A stretch of DNA of 64,000 nucleotides from an uncultured Clostridia bacterium (GCA_944387535.1 CALXFI010000001.1:2682-66681), one strand, 5' to 3'. Shown: positions 12,242-52,558, counted from the stretch's first letter. The notes: generated by a model not told the origin, from the letters alone. A program made the numbers and translations.

Positions 12242-12664
12242 ATGGATTACGTATTTGAAAGAAGAATTAATTATTATGAAACTGATAGAATGGGAATTGT
12301 TCATCATTCTAATTATATTCGTTTTATGGAAGAAGCAAGATGCTATCTTCTTGATAAACTTGGTATGCCTTATTCTGCCTTTGAAGATAACAATGTTATG
12401 ATACCAGTTCTTGGTGTTAATTGCACTTTTAAACATCATGTTACTTTTAATGATGTTATATTAATAAAACTATATGTAAAAGAATTTAATGGTGTAAGAC
12501 TTACTATGGGTTATACTGCTACTGAAAAAAATACAGGAGAAGTTGTCTTTACAGGTGAAACTAAACATTGTTTTACAGATAAAAATTTAAGACCTATTCG
12601 TCTTCAAAAATCTATCCCTGATTTTTACAAAAAATTTAATGATTTAAAAGAAAAAGGTCTTTAA
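12242..12664 (+). CDS. Acyl-CoA thioesterase, YbgC/4HBT hot-dog fold family
   Basis: N-terminal YETDRMGIVHHSNY motif typical of 4HBT thioesterases. The start was chosen at the ATG preceded by AAAGGA. Confidence 0.7.
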   Translation: MDYVFERRINYYETDRMGIVHHSNYIRFMEEARCYLLDKLGMPYSAFEDNNVMIPVLGVNCTFKHHVTFNDVILIKLYVKEFNGVRLTMGYTATEKNTGEVVFTGETKHCFTDKNLRPIRLQKSIPDFYKKFNDLKEKGL

Positions 12665-12739
12665 TTTTCCTTTGATTTATGTTACAATGTAGTAGATTTT
12701 AGAAGAAAATGTCAAAAGATAAAACAAGGAGGATTTAAA

Positions 12740-13027
12740 ATGGAATTTAATAGATGTAGTAGATGTGGAAGTTTTTATGTTTCAGAGGGTAATGTTTGCC
12801 CTAAATGTAGTAAAAAAGATGGAGCTGAATTTATGCAATTTACATCTTATTTGGACGAAAACGGTTTTAATAATTCTTTAGATACTATTTCTAACCAAAC
12901 AGGTATATCTGTTAGAAACTTAAATCGTTTCATTGGATATCCTGAATTTAAAAATTATAAAAAAGATTTCAAAAATGGTATTATCCAAAACCAAGAAACT
13001 GGTTTTAACGGAATAACACTTAACTAA
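12740..13027 (+). CDS. Zinc-ribbon protein (CxxC..CxxC at the N-terminus), YvyF/TIGR03826-like
   Basis: Motif RCSRCGSFY..VCPKC. A GGAGG ribosome-binding site is present. A TGnTACAAT extended -10 element lies upstream at about 12686-12695. Confidence 0.5.
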   Translation: MEFNRCSRCGSFYVSEGNVCPKCSKKDGAEFMQFTSYLDENGFNNSLDTISNQTGISVRNLNRFIGYPEFKNYKKDFKNGIIQNQETGFNGITLN

Positions 13028-13043
13028 GAAAGGATTTTGATTT

Positions 13044-14255
13044 ATGGAAAATGTTATTGATTTGCTTAACGAAAGAGGTTATATCGAACAAATTACTCAC
13101 CCAGAAGAGTTAAAAGAACTTTTAGGAAAAGAAAAAATTTCTTTTTATATTGGTATAGACCCTACTGCTGATAGTTTACATGTTGGTCATTTTGTTTCAC
13201 TAATGGTTGCATCTCATATGCAAAAATGTGGACATAGACCAATTATATTAGTTGGTGGCGGTACTGCAACAATTGGTGACCCATCTGGAAAAACTGATAT
13301 GAGAAAAATGCTTTCTCGCGAAGAAATTAACCATAACGTTGCTTGTATTAAAAAGCAAGTTGAAAAATTTGTTAGTTTTGAAGGTGAAAACGCAGCAATA
13401 ATAGTAAATAATGCCGACTGGCTTTTAGATTTAAAATTTGTTGACTTTGTACGTGAAATTGGAAGCCTATTCTCTGTTAATAAAATGCTTGCAGCAGAAT
13501 GTTATAAACAAAGACTAGAAACTGGTCTTACCTTCTTTGAAATGAGCTATATGCTTATGCAATCTTATGATTTCTTACATTTATATAATGAGTATGGTTG
13601 TAAGTTAGAAATGGGTGGAAATGACCAATGGTCTAATATTATAGGTGGAGTTGATTTAATTAGAAAAATTGGTAAAGACGATTCTTTTGGTTTAACATTT
13701 AAACTTCTTACAACTAAAGAAGGTAAGAAAATGGGTAAAACTGAAAAAGGTGCCCTATGGCTTGCCCCTAACAAAACTTCTCCTTATGAATTTTACCAAT
13801 ATTGGAGAAATGTTGAAGATGATAGTGTAGAAAACGTTTTAAAAATGCTTACATTCTTACCTATTGAAAAAATAAAAGAACTTGCAAGCCTTAAAGATGA
13901 AAAAATAAATGATGCTAAGAAAATTCTAGCATATGAAATAACAAAATTGGTTCATGGAGAAGAAGAAGCTAAAAAAGCTGAAGAAGCTTCAAATGCATTA
14001 TTTAGTGGACAAGGTAACTTAGATAACATGCCTACTACTAAATTAGAAGATAGAAATATTTCAATCTTAGATGCAATTATTAAATGTAATATGGCTCCTT
14101 CTAAAGGACAAGCAAGAACGCTTATCAACCAAGGTGGTATATCTCTAAATGATGAAAAAGTTACAGATACAAACTACAAACTTTCAGACAATGACTTCAA
14201 AGATGGATATGCTATTCTTAAAAAAGGTAAAAAAGTATTTAATAAGCTAATATAA
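13044..14255 (+). CDS. tyrS: Tyrosine--tRNA ligase
   Basis: HIGH motif (LHVGHF), KMSKS motif (KMGKT) and a C-terminal S4-like domain. Confidence 0.95.
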
Positions 14256-20054: not shown

Positions 20055-20244
20055 TTTTTTACCTGCTACTCAAAATATGAACAAATATACTCATATCGAG
20101 ATCTTGAAAGTTTTCACAAACATTTCTTACTGCTTCATTGTGTATGCTTTTGTGGTTAAAACTAACTCACTACTCACAAGTTCTTGTACACTCCACAGTC
20201 GTAAATTCCCGACTAGCCATCGGTACATACTTACAATCGCTTGT

Positions 20245-21420
20245 TTATGCTATTTTGTAAGTTCTTGCATCTCTTAAATTAAGACTTGCATTAAAATCTC
20301 TATCTTCTATATATCCACAGTCACACTTATAAATTCTATCTGATAATTTTAAGTCATTTTTAATAAAACCACAATGATGACATATTTTACTAGATGGATA
20401 CCATCTATCTACAATTCTTAATTCAATTTCATATTCTTTGCATTTTGCTTCTAATTTTCTTTTAAATTCATAGAACTTTTGTGAAGCAATTGCTTTTGAA
20501 AGATGCCTATTCCTCATCATTCCTTTTACATTTAAATCTTCTATTGTTATATAAGATGGCTTGGTTTTCACTATCTCATTTATACTTTTGTTAATGTAAT
20601 CGCATCTAACGTTTTCTATTCTTTGATGAAGTCTTTGTACCTTTATGACTTGTTTTTGTATATTTTGTCTAGTAGCTTCTCCTTTCTTTTTATTTTCTTT
20701 GCTACGTTTTTTTAAGTCTTCGTATTTCCTCGATAGACAACGCTGCTCTTTCTTTAATTTTTTTTCAAGTTTTCTTATTCTTGCTGACTTGTTAATATTC
20801 TTTTTTACAGTCCCATCACTCATAATTGCAAAATCTTTTAGTCCTAAATCAATACCTAAGCCAAAATCATTTAATTTAGTCTTTTCTGATTTAGGAACAT
20901 CAATTAGAACAGATACATAATATCTTCCTGCTTTACAAGAAACTGTACCTCTTTTAATTACATACCCTTGTTTTGTCGTTGGAATATACCCTTTTTCTTT
21001 TAACTTCACCCAACCAAGTGTAGGAATCTTAATTCTATGTCTTTCACAAAAACAGTCTTTTTGATTGTTTTTTACAAAATACATTTTTACATCTGATTTA
21101 TTCTTTTTCTTAAAATTTGGAAAACCACTTTGTTTTTTAAAAAACTTTACAAAGGCAGTATATGCATTTTCCATAGCTTTCTTAACAGACTTTGAACTCG
21201 CCTTCTTTATCCAAAGATATTCTGGGTTATTTGGTATAAATTCATTGTTAAGCCAAACACTAAAAGTTCTAGCTGTCATAAATTTTTCGCCTTTATCATA
21301 AATTTCTTTGTTATGTGCAAGGTAAAAATTGTAAATAAATCTACAAGTCCCAATTGTTTGCTTAATTTTTACTATCTGTTCTGGTGTTGGTTTGATTTCC
21401 GTTTTGTAACTCTTTAGCAA
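20245..21420 (-). CDS. tnpB: TnpB (IS605 OrfB family RuvC-like RNA-guided endonuclease)
   Basis: RuvC-III region plus the C-terminal zinc finger CHHCGF..CDCGY. Ends ..DFNASLNLR. 391 aa. Confidence 0.85.
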   Translation of the reverse strand: MLKSYKTEIKPTPEQIVKIKQTIGTCRFIYNFYLAHNKEIYDKGEKFMTARTFSVWLNNEFIPNNPEYLWIKKASSKSVKKAMENAYTAFVKFFKKQSGFPNFKKKNKSDVKMYFVKNNQKDCFCERHRIKIPTLGWVKLKEKGYIPTTKQGYVIKRGTVSCKAGRYYVSVLIDVPKSEKTKLNDFGLGIDLGLKDFAIMSDGTVKKNINKSARIRKLEKKLKKEQRCLSRKYEDLKKRSKENKKKGEATRQNIQKQVIKVQRLHQRIENVRCDYINKSINEIVKTKPSYITIEDLNVKGMMRNRHLSKAIASQKFYEFKRKLEAKCKEYEIELRIVDRWYPSSKICHHCGFIKNDLKLSDRIYKCDCGYIEDRDFNASLNLRDARTYKIA

Positions 21421-21509
21421 TTTCTTTGTCCTCCTTTATCTTTTTTTGTACTTCCTTAATCCATATAATTTACAACTAAAAACATGCAAAATCGATATAA
21501 TATCTTGAA

Positions 21510-31671: not shown

Positions 31672-32029
31672 TGGTGGAGATGAGGAGAGTCGAACTCCTG
31701 TCCACAACACCTTCCACATAGATATCTACAAGTTTAGTTTGTTTATTTTATTCATTTTAATAACACCAACAAACAGGTTTTATTAAAATATAGCTTTTTA
31801 AAATACCCACTACTCCAAAAGCAAAAGTAGCTTCGTTTCCCACTAATATAACACTTTATCTAAAAAGGTGGGACTTTTTAGTAAAGCGGAGCTGCTCTTA
31901 GGCAGCTGCTAATGCTAATTCTTCGTTATCAGCGTTTATATTTATTTTCGCTTTTTTTAAGTGGCCAAAGCGACCATCCACTACTTGCAATCTATACTTC
32001 TAGTATTATGTCGAAACCATTGCATCCCC
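31672..32029 (-). ncRNA. ssrA: tmRNA (transfer-messenger RNA)
   Basis: 5' GGGGAUG and 3' ..GGAGUUCGACUCUCC(U)CAUCUCCACCA form a tRNA-like acceptor and T arm. The internal tag reading frame ends ..ADNEELALAAA then stop. A terminator hairpin (gacac..gtgtc) lies at 31643-31669. Confidence 0.85.
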
Positions 32030-32744: not shown

Positions 32745-34220
32745 CTACCAACCACCTAAAGGTAGTTGGCTTCGAGGATGAAATTCTTTCATCCGTTTAA
32801 GAAGTTTGGTATTTAAGTTTCCACCTTTTTTAGGCAACCCTTATTCTTACAGGCGTGTCCACTTCGCCTCTACTGTATAGCCTCTCAAGAGACACAACGC
32901 TACTTTTTCTTAATATATTTAATGCTCCATTTACATCACTATTTATTAATCTTCCTTTAGAACTTTTATACATTCCTCTATATATTCTTTTTCCACTAAA
33001 CTTATATGCTATTTTATTATCTTCATCATATATTGGCATTTCATCTTTATCCCAGAAACTTGCTTTTGATGTATAGCTTTCTTCTTGTTTTACAAAAAGT
33101 ATATTATTTAACTTAGTTAGATATTCTAGTTTAGAATACAACTTGCCAAATGGTATATTTACAAATGTTTGATTGTTTTTCTTTCCTATTTTACTTTCTC
33201 TTTGAAATTTCTCATTATATCCTACAACAAGTGTTCCTATATCATTTGTAATACAATAATCTATTAATTTTCTTGCTGCTTTACTTATATAATCATTTAT
33301 TCTATTATTTCTTTTTCGTGTTATTATTTTCTGTTTTTTTGTTGTTTTCTTATTACTTATTCCTTGTTTATCTTTTATTTTTTGTAATCTTCCATTTTCT
33401 TTGTTATACCATTGATTTATTGACTTTACTTTCTTTCCATCTATTATGAAACTTTTTCCTTTATTTGTTACTGCTGTTACTAGATTATTTACTCCTAAAT
33501 CTATTGCTAGTACATTTTGGGTATTTAATTTTCTTTGAATTATTTCTACTTCATATATATATTGTATTTCAAAGAACCTAGCTTTTCCTTTTGGTATTAT
33601 TCGTATTTCTTTTATTTTCTTATCTAGTAATATTGGGGGAATTTTTATTTCTATTTGTTTATGATTTTTCTTATAACTATTTGAAAATGGTATTATTAAT
33701 TTATTTCCATTTAGTCTTACAAAACCTATTATTAAACTTGTATATCCGTCTTTTGAAAGATAATGTGGTAACCTACAATCTTTTATATTATATTTTCCTT
33801 CTTTTGATAATTTTAGTAATGAAAAAAATGATTTAAAACTTCCATCTACTTCTTTTATTATTTGCTGTGCCATATTTGAATTAAGTAATTTATAATTTTC
33901 TGACGTTTTAAGTAATTCATAATTTTTTGAATAGTTTAAATATTTTCCTTCAGCAAAATAGTATTGTCTTATATTGTATATTGCTTGATTAGTTAGATTT
34001 TTTGCTATATGACAAAGTTCTTTTATTATTTTATATTCTGCTTTAGACAGATGTTTTACTTGTTGTTTTACAGTTAAATACATATTTTTCACCTCCTCTA
34101 AATTTCTAGAATTTCTTTAGAAGTTTATTATATCAAAATCTAATATTTTTATCAAGCAATTTAATTTTACGAATCTCAAAAATTAGTTGCTTATATCCCA
34201 CCACCTAAAGGTAGTGGGTT
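32745..34220 (-). mobile_element. IS200/IS605-family tnpB-only element inserted in the polysaccharide deacetylase gene
   Basis: Similar subterminal imperfect hairpins occur at both ends: ccaaccacctaaaggtagttgg (32748-32769) and cccaccacctaaaggtagtggg (34197-34218). The host gene is split between NodB motifs 4 and 5. Boundaries are approximate. Confidence 0.6.
32830..34092 (-). CDS. tnpB: TnpB-like protein (IS605 OrfB family), 420 aa, without a C-terminal zinc finger
   Basis: RuvC-like motifs including ..INSDVNGALNI. N-terminal OrfB_IS605 region. Confidence 0.8.
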   Translation of the reverse strand: MKNMYLTVKQQVKHLSKAEYKIIKELCHIAKNLTNQAIYNIRQYYFAEGKYLNYSKNYELLKTSENYKLLNSNMAQQIIKEVDGSFKSFFSLLKLSKEGKYNIKDCRLPHYLSKDGYTSLIIGFVRLNGNKLIIPFSNSYKKNHKQIEIKIPPILLDKKIKEIRIIPKGKARFFEIQYIYEVEIIQRKLNTQNVLAIDLGVNNLVTAVTNKGKSFIIDGKKVKSINQWYNKENGRLQKIKDKQGISNKKTTKKQKIITRKRNNRINDYISKAARKLIDYCITNDIGTLVVGYNEKFQRESKIGKKNNQTFVNIPFGKLYSKLEYLTKLNNILFVKQEESYTSKASFWDKDEMPIYDEDNKIAYKFSGKRIYRGMYKSSKGRLINSDVNGALNILRKSSVVSLERLYSRGEVDTPVRIRVA

Positions 34221-34511: not shown

Positions 34512-34585
34512 GCGGGTATAATTTAGTGGTAGAATGCAATGCTTCCGACCTTGTCGCGAGGGTTCGATTCCCTCTACCCGCTCCA
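34512..34585 (+). tRNA. tRNA-Gly (anticodon UCC), 74 nt
   Basis: Acceptor GCGGGUA/UACCCGC. Discriminator U. T arm GAGGG-UUCGAUU-CCCUC. Anticodon loop CUUCCGA. There is one U.C mismatch in the anticodon stem. Confidence 0.65.
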
Positions 34586-49010: not shown

Positions 49011-49106
49011 AATTTCTTCCTTTCGTTTTTATTTATCTTGATTTTTTACTTCATTAAAAATTATAACATAGAAAAACAAAAAAAGATACAATTTTATGTA
49101 TCTTTT

Positions 49107-49420
49107 TGGTGGGCAGGGAAGGATTCGAACCTTCGTACTCAAATGAGAACAGATTTCTTACTACTATAGTTTTCACTACCAATTTCTTGTTTGTAGTCTG
49201 GACTTTCTCTTTATCTTAATATTAAGATACTAGGTATAAAGTCTCTACACTCAGGAATTTTATTTCCTTAGCTCGGGATTACCATCAGCGTTATCTGTTA
49301 AGGCTTCCCCGAATTAGCCTAGTTATCATCATACAATCACTTGTATGAGCTGCAAATTTAGGTTTTTGGAATTAACCAAAGACTACAGTCTGCCGCCTTT
49401 AGCCACTCGGCCACCTACCC
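49107..49420 (-). tRNA. tRNA-Tyr (anticodon GUA) interrupted by a group I intron. Exon 1 is 49385-49420 and exon 2 is 49107-49156. The spliced tRNA is 86 nt including the encoded CCA.
   Basis: Exon 1 is GGGUAGGUGGCCGAGUGGCUAAAGGCGGCAGACUGU. Exon 2 is AAAUCUGU + UCUCAUUUGAGUAC (long variable arm) + GAAGG-UUCGAAU-CCUUC + CCUGCCC-A-CCA. The joined acceptor, D, anticodon (GCAGA/UCUGU, loop CUGUAAA) and T arms all pair. Long variable arm, G1:C72 and A73 fit tRNA-Tyr. Confidence 0.7.
49157..49384 (-). ncRNA. Group I self-splicing intron (about 228 nt) in the tRNA-Tyr anticodon loop, between nucleotides 35 and 36
   Basis: The 5' exon ends in U and the intron ends in G. Core-like elements match Azoarcus/cyanobacterial tRNA group I introns: AAUUCGGGGAAGCCUUAAC (compare AAUUCGGCGAAACCUAAG), GUGUAGAGACU, and AAGAUA..AGUCC. 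Confidence 0.6.
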
Positions 49421-49432
49421 TTATATAAAAAA

Positions 49433-49509
49433 TGGTGCTCCCTCAAGGATTCGAACCTTGGACCCACTGGTTATGAGCCAGTTGCTCTGACCAACTGAGC
49501 TAAGGGAGC
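49433..49509 (-). tRNA. tRNA-Met (anticodon CAU; an Ile2/lysidine type cannot be excluded), 77 nt
   Basis: Acceptor GCUCCCU/AGGGAGC. Anticodon arm ACUGG-CUCAUAA-CCAGU. T arm CAAGG-UUCGAAU-CCUUG. Confidence 0.8.
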
Positions 49510-49631
49510 ATGTGCTTAATTACTTAGCACAGATTAAAGTATAAACCATTTTCATGTAATTGTCAATAGTTTTTTTGAATTTTTTGTAGTAAATATGCCT
49601 AAATTTTTATAGGCATATTTACTTGTTTATT

Positions 49632-52261: not shown

Positions 52262-52558
52262 AATGATTATTTTTAACAATTTATATAAAAAATAGCGCCT
52301 CCTTTACAAGAGACGCTAAAAATACGTGGTACCACTCTAATTATTTATATATTTTTAATTTCTATATAAATCACTCATTCTCTATAACGCCGAGTCCGCG
52401 AACTATGATACTAAATATTTAAATTTTTCCCATAGCCACTCATAAGCTCTTTTCATCTTATAATCCACATGTTAGCTCTCACTCTACCTAACTCGCTGTT
52501 GCTTCAATATAAAACTACTCTCTTAATCATCGATTTTATTATTAATTTTTAAACTATA
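52262..52558 (-). promoter_or_regulatory. T-box riboswitch leader upstream of argG-argH
   Basis: Conserved T-box sequence AAUUAGAGUGGUACCACG (plus-strand 52324-52341 reverse-complemented). An intrinsic terminator AGCGUCUC..GAGGCGCU plus U-run (52292-52315) lies immediately downstream. A sigma-A promoter TTGACA-17-TATACT is at 52565-52593. The stem I region carries AGAGA and a GUAGAGUGAGAG distal-loop motif. Confidence 0.7.

Follow-up and report, generated by a model that had tools for sequence, protein, structure and literature searches.

A tRNA-Tyr(GUA) gene probably split by a small, IC3-like group I intron between positions 35 and 36 in an uncultured Clostridia bacterium and its gut relatives

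The window analysed here is a stretch of 64,000 nucleotides from an uncultured Clostridia bacterium (GCA_944387535.1 CALXFI010000001.1:2682-66681), with positions counted from its first letter. A split tRNA-Tyr(GUA) gene is located on its minus strand (49420..49107), comprising a 5' exon (49420-49385), an intron (49384-49157), and a 3' exon (49156-49107). The earlier note had the coordinates, the 36- and 50-nt halves, and their separation by 228 nt right, provided that they are read on the minus strand. The gene and its immediate surroundings are as follows:

49538..49566, minus strand: putative sigma-70-like promoter TTGACA-17-TATACT, approximately 29 nt upstream of the tRNA-Met gene, 11 of 12 consensus matches
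49433..49509, minus strand: tRNA(CAU) gene directly upstream on the same strand (74.4 bits)
49385..49420, minus strand: 5' exon, 36 nt (acceptor 5' strand, D arm, anticodon stem 5' strand, and loop bases C32, U33, G34, and U35)
49157..49384, minus strand: group I intron (RF00028 match, covariation, RNAalifold consensus, MFE z-score -2.67)
49107..49156, minus strand: 3' exon, 50 nt (A36, remainder of the loop, anticodon stem 3' strand, long variable arm, T arm, acceptor 3' strand, A73, and encoded CCA)
49070..49105, minus strand: AT-rich hairpin AAAGAUACA / UGUAUCUUU followed by a U-run, after the CCA, read by eye

The 5' exon (49420..49385, GGGTAGGTGGCCGAGTGGCTAAAGGCGGCAGACTGT) ends in CUGU, its last base being U-1, and the 3' exon (49156..49107, AAATCTGTTCTCATTTGAGTACGAAGGTTCGAATCCTTCCCTGCCCACCA) begins with AAAUCU and ends with CCA. 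The 228-nt insert (49384..49157) has A as its first base and G as its last. With introns allowed, the gene was reported by ARAGORN as tRNA-Tyr(gta) i(37,228), i.e., with 228 nt of intron following gene position 36, and the joined exons (86-mer) were folded by the same program into a class II cloverleaf with a GUA anticodon and a long variable arm of 3 bp, as had been proposed from the two halves. The marks of a class II tRNA-Tyr were present (G1-C72, discriminator A73, and encoded CCA), G1-C82 and A83 being read directly off the sequence. Default ARAGORN, run over the 64-kb window, returned tRNA-Thr, tmRNA, tRNA-Gly, and tRNA-Met only and missed tRNA-Tyr; neither the Rfam tRNA model nor the Rfam gathering mode reported anything at the locus. 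Detection required that introns be allowed in ARAGORN and that Rfam be run in E-value mode.

Relatives were gathered with sequence patterns. Metagenomes were scanned for AATTCGGNGAARCC...GTGTAGAGACT, two core strings common to Azoarcus-type introns, with at least 120 matches; among those listed, the hosts were mostly tRNA-Leu(UAA) and tRNA(CAU) genes, and one further tRNA-Tyr(GUA) with the identical split site was found on an environmental contig (L018). Raw ARAGORN -i calls on the metagenome matches were noisy, a 'Tyr(ata)' call being in fact tRNA-Leu(UAA), and were therefore not used to name new host tRNAs. Genomes (one per species) were scanned for the shared 3' domain joined to the Tyr-specific 3' junction, which gave at least 120 loci, and a scan of viral contigs gave one match. 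Among the 121 loci listed (120 genomic and one viral), 117 were tRNA-Tyr(gta) genes interrupted by an intron after position 36; three others were cut off by the end of the stored stretch, and the last was the viral contig, which bears a large tRNA array with a divergent split tRNA-Tyr for which no ARAGORN call was made. CTGT before the intron, a terminal intron G, and AAAT after it were found in 117/117 relatives among the matches listed. The earlier observation that the insert follows a U and ends with G, i.e., U-1 and omega-G, is thereby extended to all of them.

Nearly all hosts were uncultured gut MAGs from human, goat, sheep, rabbit, chicken, and mouse, labelled as Clostridia, Clostridium sp. 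(including CAG:567, CAG:575, and CAG:354), Bacilli, Tenericutes, or Erysipelotrichaceae; one Anaerolineae MAG (L182) was among the hosts listed. The nearest intron relatives of the window, among those listed, were 5% divergent, with neighbouring genes in common at 78-96% protein identity. An ArgH identical to that of the window organism was also seen on gut or environmental metagenome contigs. Ranking the metagenome introns by global identity to the window intron was discarded as uninformative, the scores having been inflated by length differences; the tRNA-Leu(UAA) and fMet types came out nearest in that ranking.

Because an A stands at the 5' junction, the splice point in the window is formally ambiguous. 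The junction was placed at CUGU|AAAU, position 35/36, since the intron begins with G in 63/117 relatives among the matches listed, and the CUGU|AAA loop of the earlier note is thus fixed. The alternative 36/37 junction (CUGUA|...|AAUC) was rejected: it would need an intron ending in a base other than G, and it would alter the anticodon in 63 relatives. Chance or an assembly artefact was likewise rejected, as the same structure recurs in independent human, goat, sheep, rabbit, chicken, and mouse gut assemblies. With a full-length RF00028 match and recurrence at the same junction in at least 117 other loci, the split arrangement is far beyond chance.

Searched against the window in E-value mode (local search), RF00028 matched end to end (model positions 1-253 of 253) at 49377..49176 with 48.5 bits and an E-value of 3.5e-11. 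At the Rfam gathering score (50 bits), no match was reported in the window, the score being 1.5 bits short, and in gathering mode 0/18 related loci were detected. The gathering score is an annotation cut-off and not a biological criterion, and one preprint describes the RF00028 seed as being without bacterial sequences (Williams 2020, bioRxiv 10.1101/2020.01.27.920355). The Infernal check proposed in the earlier note therefore came out positive as a full-length match and, on a technicality, narrowly negative at the curated threshold. The MFE z-score of the single-sequence fold (-2.67) is weak when taken alone, as expected for a pseudoknotted ribozyme. The helices were mapped by hand, from P1 to P9, as follows:

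49350..49388, minus strand: P1 and extension hairpin, exon CUGU plus intron AG (49388-49383) paired with the guide UUGCAG (49355-49350)
49329..49348, minus strand: P2 hairpin, 8 bp with a GUGA (GNRA-type) tetraloop, compensatory changes at 8/8 pairs, also found by RNAalifold
49318..49322, minus strand: P3 5' strand CUAGG, paired with 49234-49230, 4/5 pairs covarying and 99.8% of cells paired
49273..49312, minus strand: P4-P5-P5a domain (J3/4-P4 UUCGGGG, P5 GCC/GGU, P5a CAG/CUG, and P4 3' strand UCCCGA)
49249..49272, minus strand: P6/P6a hairpin, P6 invariant, 4/4 contiguous P6a pairs compensatory, the fifth and innermost modelled pair 68% paired
49239..49245, minus strand: P7 5' strand G-A(bulge)-GACUU inside the conserved GUGUAGAGACU, paired with 49205-49200 (AAGUCC), 6/6 pairs invariant in 110 sequences, partly through the search pattern on the P7' side
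49230..49234, minus strand: P3 3' strand CCUAG, part of the P3/P7 pseudoknot, supported by covariation and RNAalifold
49213..49228, minus strand: P8 hairpin, 3/5 stem pairs covarying, stem 96% paired
49200..49205, minus strand: P7 3' strand AAGUCC, preceded by J8/7 (AAGAGA), with AGTCCAG preset by the search pattern
49157..49197, minus strand: P9 three-way domain (P9 ACUAC/GUAGU, P9a hairpin CAA-GAAA-UUG, P9b hairpin GUAG-UGAAAA-CUAU, then AAG)

The guide UUGCAG occupies intron positions 30-35, and its pairing was read directly off the sequence. The wobble between U35 (49385) and G (49353) marks the 5' splice site; this U.G was kept in 110/110 homologues, with invariant flanking pairs. The P1a extension (49380-49358) contains covarying pairs, e.g., GC replaced by AU or CG in 33 sequences. 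Read in the same way, the guide AUUUGCAG complements the ligated sequence CUGU|AAAU and forms a G.U pair where the exons meet. A possible P10 would pair the UU(U) just 5' of GCAG with the AAA of the 3' exon; two U are invariant, and P10 is therefore given as 2-3 bp. The helix formed by the G-A(bulge)-GACUU strand is one that we take to be P7 by analogy with the P7 of Tetrahymena and Azoarcus, and by homology it would be the guanosine-binding helix. The omega-G is the last intron base (49157), and the intron was G-ending in 117/117 relatives among the matches listed. The motifs quoted in the earlier note (AAUUCGGGGAAGCCUUAAC, GUGUAGAGACU, and AAGAUAAAGAGAAAGUCC) were all present. As the mapped ribozyme helices take up the 228 nt, the window intron appears to be ORF-less, and no ligand-binding or additional domain was evident within it.

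Covariation was analysed on an alignment of 110 distinct sequences, each comprising the intron and 10 nt of each exon. The P1-P9 model gave standard pairs in 95.5% of cells over these 110 distinct introns, compared with 34-42% in controls slid by 1-3 columns, so the manual folding called for earlier held across the family. Compensatory double changes were found at 36/70 pairs, and 0/500 shuffles reached the observed values. P4 was nearly invariant, covariation being seen at one P5 pair and at 3/3 P5a pairs, and J8/7 was invariant along with P4 and P7, which together form the catalytic core. In the P9 domain, 3/3 P9a pairs and two P9b pairs covaried, and the same helices were obtained with RNAalifold. 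Run without our model, RNAalifold recovered the anticodon stem between the exons as well as P1, P2, P3, P4, P5, P5a, P6a, P8, P9, P9a, and P9b; the P7 pseudoknot is outside what this program can predict. The invariance of AGTCCAG, GTGAAAAC, TAGT, and GAAATC was not counted as evidence because these strings were preset by the search pattern, and that of P7', P9, and P9b was partly imposed by the pattern with which the relatives were gathered.

The exons were treated in the same manner. Across 29 distinct mature tRNA sequences, the cloverleaf was 99.7% paired, and exon-exon double changes occurred at 5/7 acceptor pairs and 2/5 anticodon-stem pairs, two helices to which each exon contributes one strand. 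The exons thus co-vary across the intron and evolve as one RNA, and the halves must therefore be joined. These patterns, covering at least 110 homologues, show that the ribozyme helices and the exon-exon pairing are under purifying selection, as read from aligned sequences. Together with the RF00028 match and the guide pairing in P1 and possibly P10, they uphold the earlier view of a group I intron akin to the tRNA introns of Azoarcus and cyanobacteria.

The TTGACA-17-TATACT element is likely the start of a tRNA-Met/tRNA-Tyr transcript, its function being suggested by the consensus match. A tRNA-Met(cat) call was obtained in 85 cases among the related loci listed, making it a conserved partner of the split tRNA-Tyr. 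The AT-rich hairpin after the CCA is a probable intrinsic terminator of this tRNA operon; a terminator consensus scan made no call at 49070..49105, as G-C pairs are too scarce in the stem. Neither the 64-kb window nor the 880 kb of related loci contained an intronless tRNA-Tyr. The gene tyrS, to which the earlier note had drawn attention, is indeed in the window (13041-14252, plus strand), 35 kb from the intron, and encodes an ordinary bacterial TyrRS of 404 aa with no additional Pfam domain. No T-box was found upstream of tyrS at E<=1, and a link between tyrS and the intron was dropped for lack of a T-box and because of the ordinary domain set; nothing else connecting the two was found.

Reviews up to 2014 placed bacterial tRNA group I introns in cyanobacteria and in alpha- and beta-proteobacteria only. 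The list of four hosts in the earlier note (Leu, fMet, Ile, and Arg) is out of date: according to Williams 2020 (bioRxiv 10.1101/2020.01.27.920355), 80,413 genomes were scanned, the four classical types became 21, and a bacterial tRNA-intron model was built. The seed alignment includes 'Mba143.Tyr.4Ug', an intron that sits at loop position 4 of a tRNA-Tyr and has both U-1 and omega-G. The window intron shares with it the host tRNA-Tyr(GUA), anticodon-loop position 4 (35/36), U-1, omega-G, and a P1 pairing CUGU|A... with UUGCAG, and it belongs to the 'Tyr.4Ug' class when set against this seed row. The seed core has GAUAACGGUGAAA where the window has CUAAUUCGGGGAAG, and also AAGAUAUAGUCCAUG; its P9 is a single hairpin, unlike the three-way, tRNA-Leu-type P9 of the window intron. 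On account of this different core flavour and simple P9, Mba143.Tyr.4Ug was assigned to a different lineage. The class is catalogued by software only.

A second precedent is found in Nakagawa et al. 2026 (mSystems, PMC13011429), where 35/36 is described as an unusual site enriched in Patescibacteria. The study gives 28 introns at 35/36 in 4,934 complete genomes, of which one is in Bacillota_A; one Tyr(GUA) 35/36 intron is in a Patescibacteria genome, 25/28 belong to subgroup IA, and no Patescibacteria tRNA intron is classed IC. The window intron resembles them in site, in one genome also in host tRNA, and in being missed by standard tools. It differs from these mostly IA introns in having the core and P9 of classical IC3 tRNA introns, and the single Bacillota_A case of that complete-genome survey compares with at least 117 species-level gut genomes here. 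The kind of element, its host tRNA, and its site are consequently already on record in the two studies, and the earlier note's suggestion that such an intron had not been described is not supported. A description of an IC3-like, mostly endonuclease-free lineage so widespread in gut Firmicutes was not found, published counts of Firmicutes Tyr introns aside.

The likeness to the classical IC3 introns of cyanobacterial/plastid tRNA-Leu(UAA) and Azoarcus tRNA-Ile(CAU) begins with the small size (approximately 200-250 nt) and extends to J3/4-P4 AAUUCGGNGAA, GUGUAGAGACU, AGUCCAG, and the P9 domain (..ACCAC AAA hairpin GUAGUGAAAACUAUAGUGGUAAG). The 3' exon starts with AAA(A)UC in the classical hosts and the window alike, and the 3' domains are nearly identical (AGUCCAGACCACAAA..GGUAGUGAAAACUAUAGUGGUAAG|AAAAUC in tRNA-Leu, AGUCCAGACUACAAA..GGUAGUGAAAACUAUAGUAGUAAG|AAAUCU in the window). 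The insertion sites differ, however, being 34/35 in Leu and 36/37 in Ile compared with 35/36 in the window, and unlike the classical introns, the window intron has a guide that fits CUGU|AAA and a P1 with an additional hairpin. The intron is accordingly described as IC3-like, a designation drawn from the shared core strings and the three-way P9 and not from subgroup covariance models.

We read the locus, with a probability of roughly 0.88, as a functional tRNA-Tyr(GUA) gene that carries a small, ORF-less, IC3-like group I intron between U35 and A36 and is co-transcribed with the upstream tRNA(CAU). That a group I intron splits the tRNA-Tyr is very probable and is supported at the level of sequence and evolution, from which we infer catalysis. 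Transcription would start at the predicted promoter, and the organism would depend on splicing to decode tyrosine. The two exons of the precursor would be kept together by the anticodon stem, while C32-U35 and the first intron bases would pair with the guide UUGCAG to form P1, in which U35.G would set the 5' splice site. That site would be attacked by an exogenous guanosine held in P7, after which the terminal G (49157) would fill the P7 guanosine pocket and the 3' exon AAA would pair with the UU(U) beside the guide as P10. The 3'-OH of U35 would then attack the 3' splice site, ligating CUGU to AAAUCU and yielding an 86-nt tRNA that would contain CUGUAAAUCU. Precise in vitro splicing is reported for other 35/36 tRNA introns, namely tRNA-Asn and tRNA-Asp examples, in PMC13011429.

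A split gene of this kind might instead be a decaying pseudogene, with a non-splicing intron or remnant in one copy and tyrosine decoded via an intact tRNA-Tyr elsewhere. The RF00028 score under the gathering threshold could be taken in this sense, and the DNA searched was the window and the related loci, so that copies elsewhere in the genome are possible. We nevertheless regard a pseudogene as hardly credible: compensatory changes maintain the helices in 110 sequences while P4, P7, and J8/7 are invariant, the exon stems spanning the intron co-vary, U-1, omega-G, and the guide are kept in 117/117 genes among the matches listed, and the 880 kb of related loci hold no intronless tRNA-Tyr. A dead element would not give such a pattern over more than 100 species. 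Another reading holds that excision of the intron in vivo needs a protein cofactor or serves as a regulatory checkpoint (e.g., for GTP or growth rate), the intron not being a neutral passenger. It could draw, though only indirectly, on the intron's persistence in more than 100 species where it lacks an endonuclease, on tyrS in the same window, and on regulatory roles for retained tRNA introns speculated upon in Nakagawa et al. 2026 (PMC13011429). Small IC3 tRNA introns (Azoarcus and Anabaena) self-splice protein-free, however (PMC3984707), the TyrRS 35 kb away is the ordinary enzyme, and the 228 nt offer no evident ligand-binding or additional domain; we consider a cofactor or checkpoint quite unlikely.

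The intron could also be a recently spreading mobile element, carried by an I-Ssp6803I-type endonuclease or by phage-borne tRNA arrays and transferred horizontally into a conserved target. Five of the 117 relatives listed have introns of 586-629 nt with ORFs, located in the P1 loop in four and in P6 in one, and the three ORFs tested (125-172 aa) all matched Pfam PF11645 of the PD-(D/E)XK endonuclease family (E 2e-13 to 6e-25). One of them directly matched PDB 2OST, which we take to be I-Ssp6803I, a homing endonuclease that Synechocystis encodes in its tRNA-fMet intron. PF11645 ORFs are thus a feature that relatives of the window intron share with the Synechocystis intron; unlike the latter, the window intron appears ORF-less, and the ORFs of its relatives lie in the P1 or P6 loop of a tRNA-Tyr intron. 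Horizontal spread is further suggested by the split tRNA-Tyr of the same family on the viral contig and by the related Tyr introns in the Anaerolineae MAG and on the environmental contig. Against it, 112/117 introns among the matches listed, the window's included, are short (214-250 nt) and counted as ORF-less, with the window's 228 nt occupied by the mapped helices. Intron subtypes follow exon subtypes (Spearman 0.45 between intron and exon divergence), and the tRNA-Met/tRNA-Tyr module is kept in many loci that have different protein genes on its flanks. Introns diverge by a median of 15% and have compensatory changes throughout, which points to long residence. Recent mobility is therefore judged unlikely, and the intron appears to have long resided in the tRNA-Tyr gene of a large group of uncultured gut Firmicutes, passed on mainly by vertical descent; the endonucleases are read as occasional gain or retention in relatives.

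As for annotation, the gene is missed by ARAGORN at default settings, by the Rfam tRNA model, and by RF00028 in gathering mode, and tRNA-Tyr will consequently look absent from more than 100 gut MAG species; tRNAscan-SE is stated not to be designed for such introns (PMC8450103). A seemingly absent tRNA-Tyr affects tRNA-based completeness scores and codon-usage inferences. The practical value of the finding lies in gut MAG annotation, and its evolutionary interest is moderate. The related split tRNA-Tyr in the viral tRNA array, if true, would be a first case of a phage tRNA gene with a group I intron. Complete-genome surveys concluded that insertions at 35/36 are seldom seen beyond Patescibacteria, and the at least 117 species found here represent a second large reservoir of 35/36 introns, in gut Firmicutes and of a different intron lineage.

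More tentatively, and at somewhat less than even odds in our estimate, the IC3-like, endonuclease-free 35/36 intron is fixed in the sole tRNA-Tyr of a large gut Firmicutes radiation (at least 117 species-level genomes), where self-splicing would be obligatory for tyrosine decoding. If so, the recent statement of 35/36 as essentially a Patescibacteria trait would be overturned, the seemingly 'missing' tRNA-Tyr of these MAGs would be explained, and the intron would constitute a lineage-specific RNA target. With members that are mostly ORF-less, a few that carry PD-(D/E)XK endonucleases in two loops, and one in a viral tRNA array, the tRNA-Tyr intron family offers a natural series for the retargeting and persistence of tRNA introns.

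A related split tRNA-Tyr-like gene was also represented among viral sequences. On the 7.9-kb IMG/VR viral contig IMGVR_UViG_3300028832_003851 (locus L246), at least 25 tRNA genes were densely arrayed; among them, between tRNA-Met and tRNA-Asn, was the split tRNA-Tyr-like gene (L246:3215-3545). The interruption, an intron of approximately 200 nt belonging to the same family as the window's intron, fell at CUGU|AAAU. The gene was not called by ARAGORN, and its intron gave no match to RF00028 (Intron_gpI, the Rfam covariance model for group I introns) at E ≤ 0.001. According to a 2014 review, phage group I introns were until then known from protein-coding genes only.

ORFs were found inside five related tRNA-Tyr introns of 586–629 nt, located as follows (coordinates within each locus):

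L162:241-926
L209:3253-3942
L242:326-995
L182:4902-5616
L228:6384-7086

All three ORFs tested from these five introns (125–172 aa) matched Pfam PF11645, a PD-(D/E)XK endonuclease family related to PDB 2OST. The ORF was inserted in the P1 loop in four introns and in the P6 loop in the fifth, and these two positions suggest at least two independent endonuclease invasions.

The IC3-type core pattern was present in at least 120 metagenome contigs (L006-L125), adjoining varied tRNA halves, chiefly Leu(UAA) and CAU among the contigs listed. Apparent Thr, Arg(UCU), Ser, Phe, and Asp halves were also seen beside it; host-tRNA identities in this set were noisy ARAGORN calls, taken uncurated.

The following other features were identified in the window:

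12300-14252 (+), region containing tyrS (404 aa; tRNA-synt_1b and TyrRS C-terminal S4-like domains)
20127-20199 (-), RAGATH-18 RNA (73.9 bits)
20248-21435 (-), TnpB-like gene (OrfB_IS605, Cas12f1-like TNB and HTH domains)
31672-32029 (-), standard one-piece tmRNA gene (188 bits; tag peptide ADNEELALAAA)
32833-34116 (-), second TnpB-like gene (OrfB_IS605, E 1e-28)
52306-52539 (-), T-box leader (95.9 bits, slightly over the 93-bit cut-off)

The presence of tyrS, as stated in the earlier note, was confirmed, and no T-box leader was found for it at E ≤ 1 (12300-14252). Directly downstream of the T-box leader at 52306-52539 were argG-argH, which are arginine biosynthesis genes and not an aminoacyl-tRNA synthetase. 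The RAGATH-18 RNA comes after the first TnpB-like gene, and 20127-21435 (-) is probably a TnpB together with its guide-RNA region. The second TnpB-like gene was flanked by the tmRNA gene and tRNA-Gly (34512-34585).

The Rfam gathering score for Intron_gpI was reached by none of the 18 related loci tested (within L126-L189), nor by the window's intron (49157-49384), and the split tRNA-Tyr gene was passed over by default tRNA finders. Consequently, tRNA-Tyr will appear absent from the annotation of these gut MAGs.
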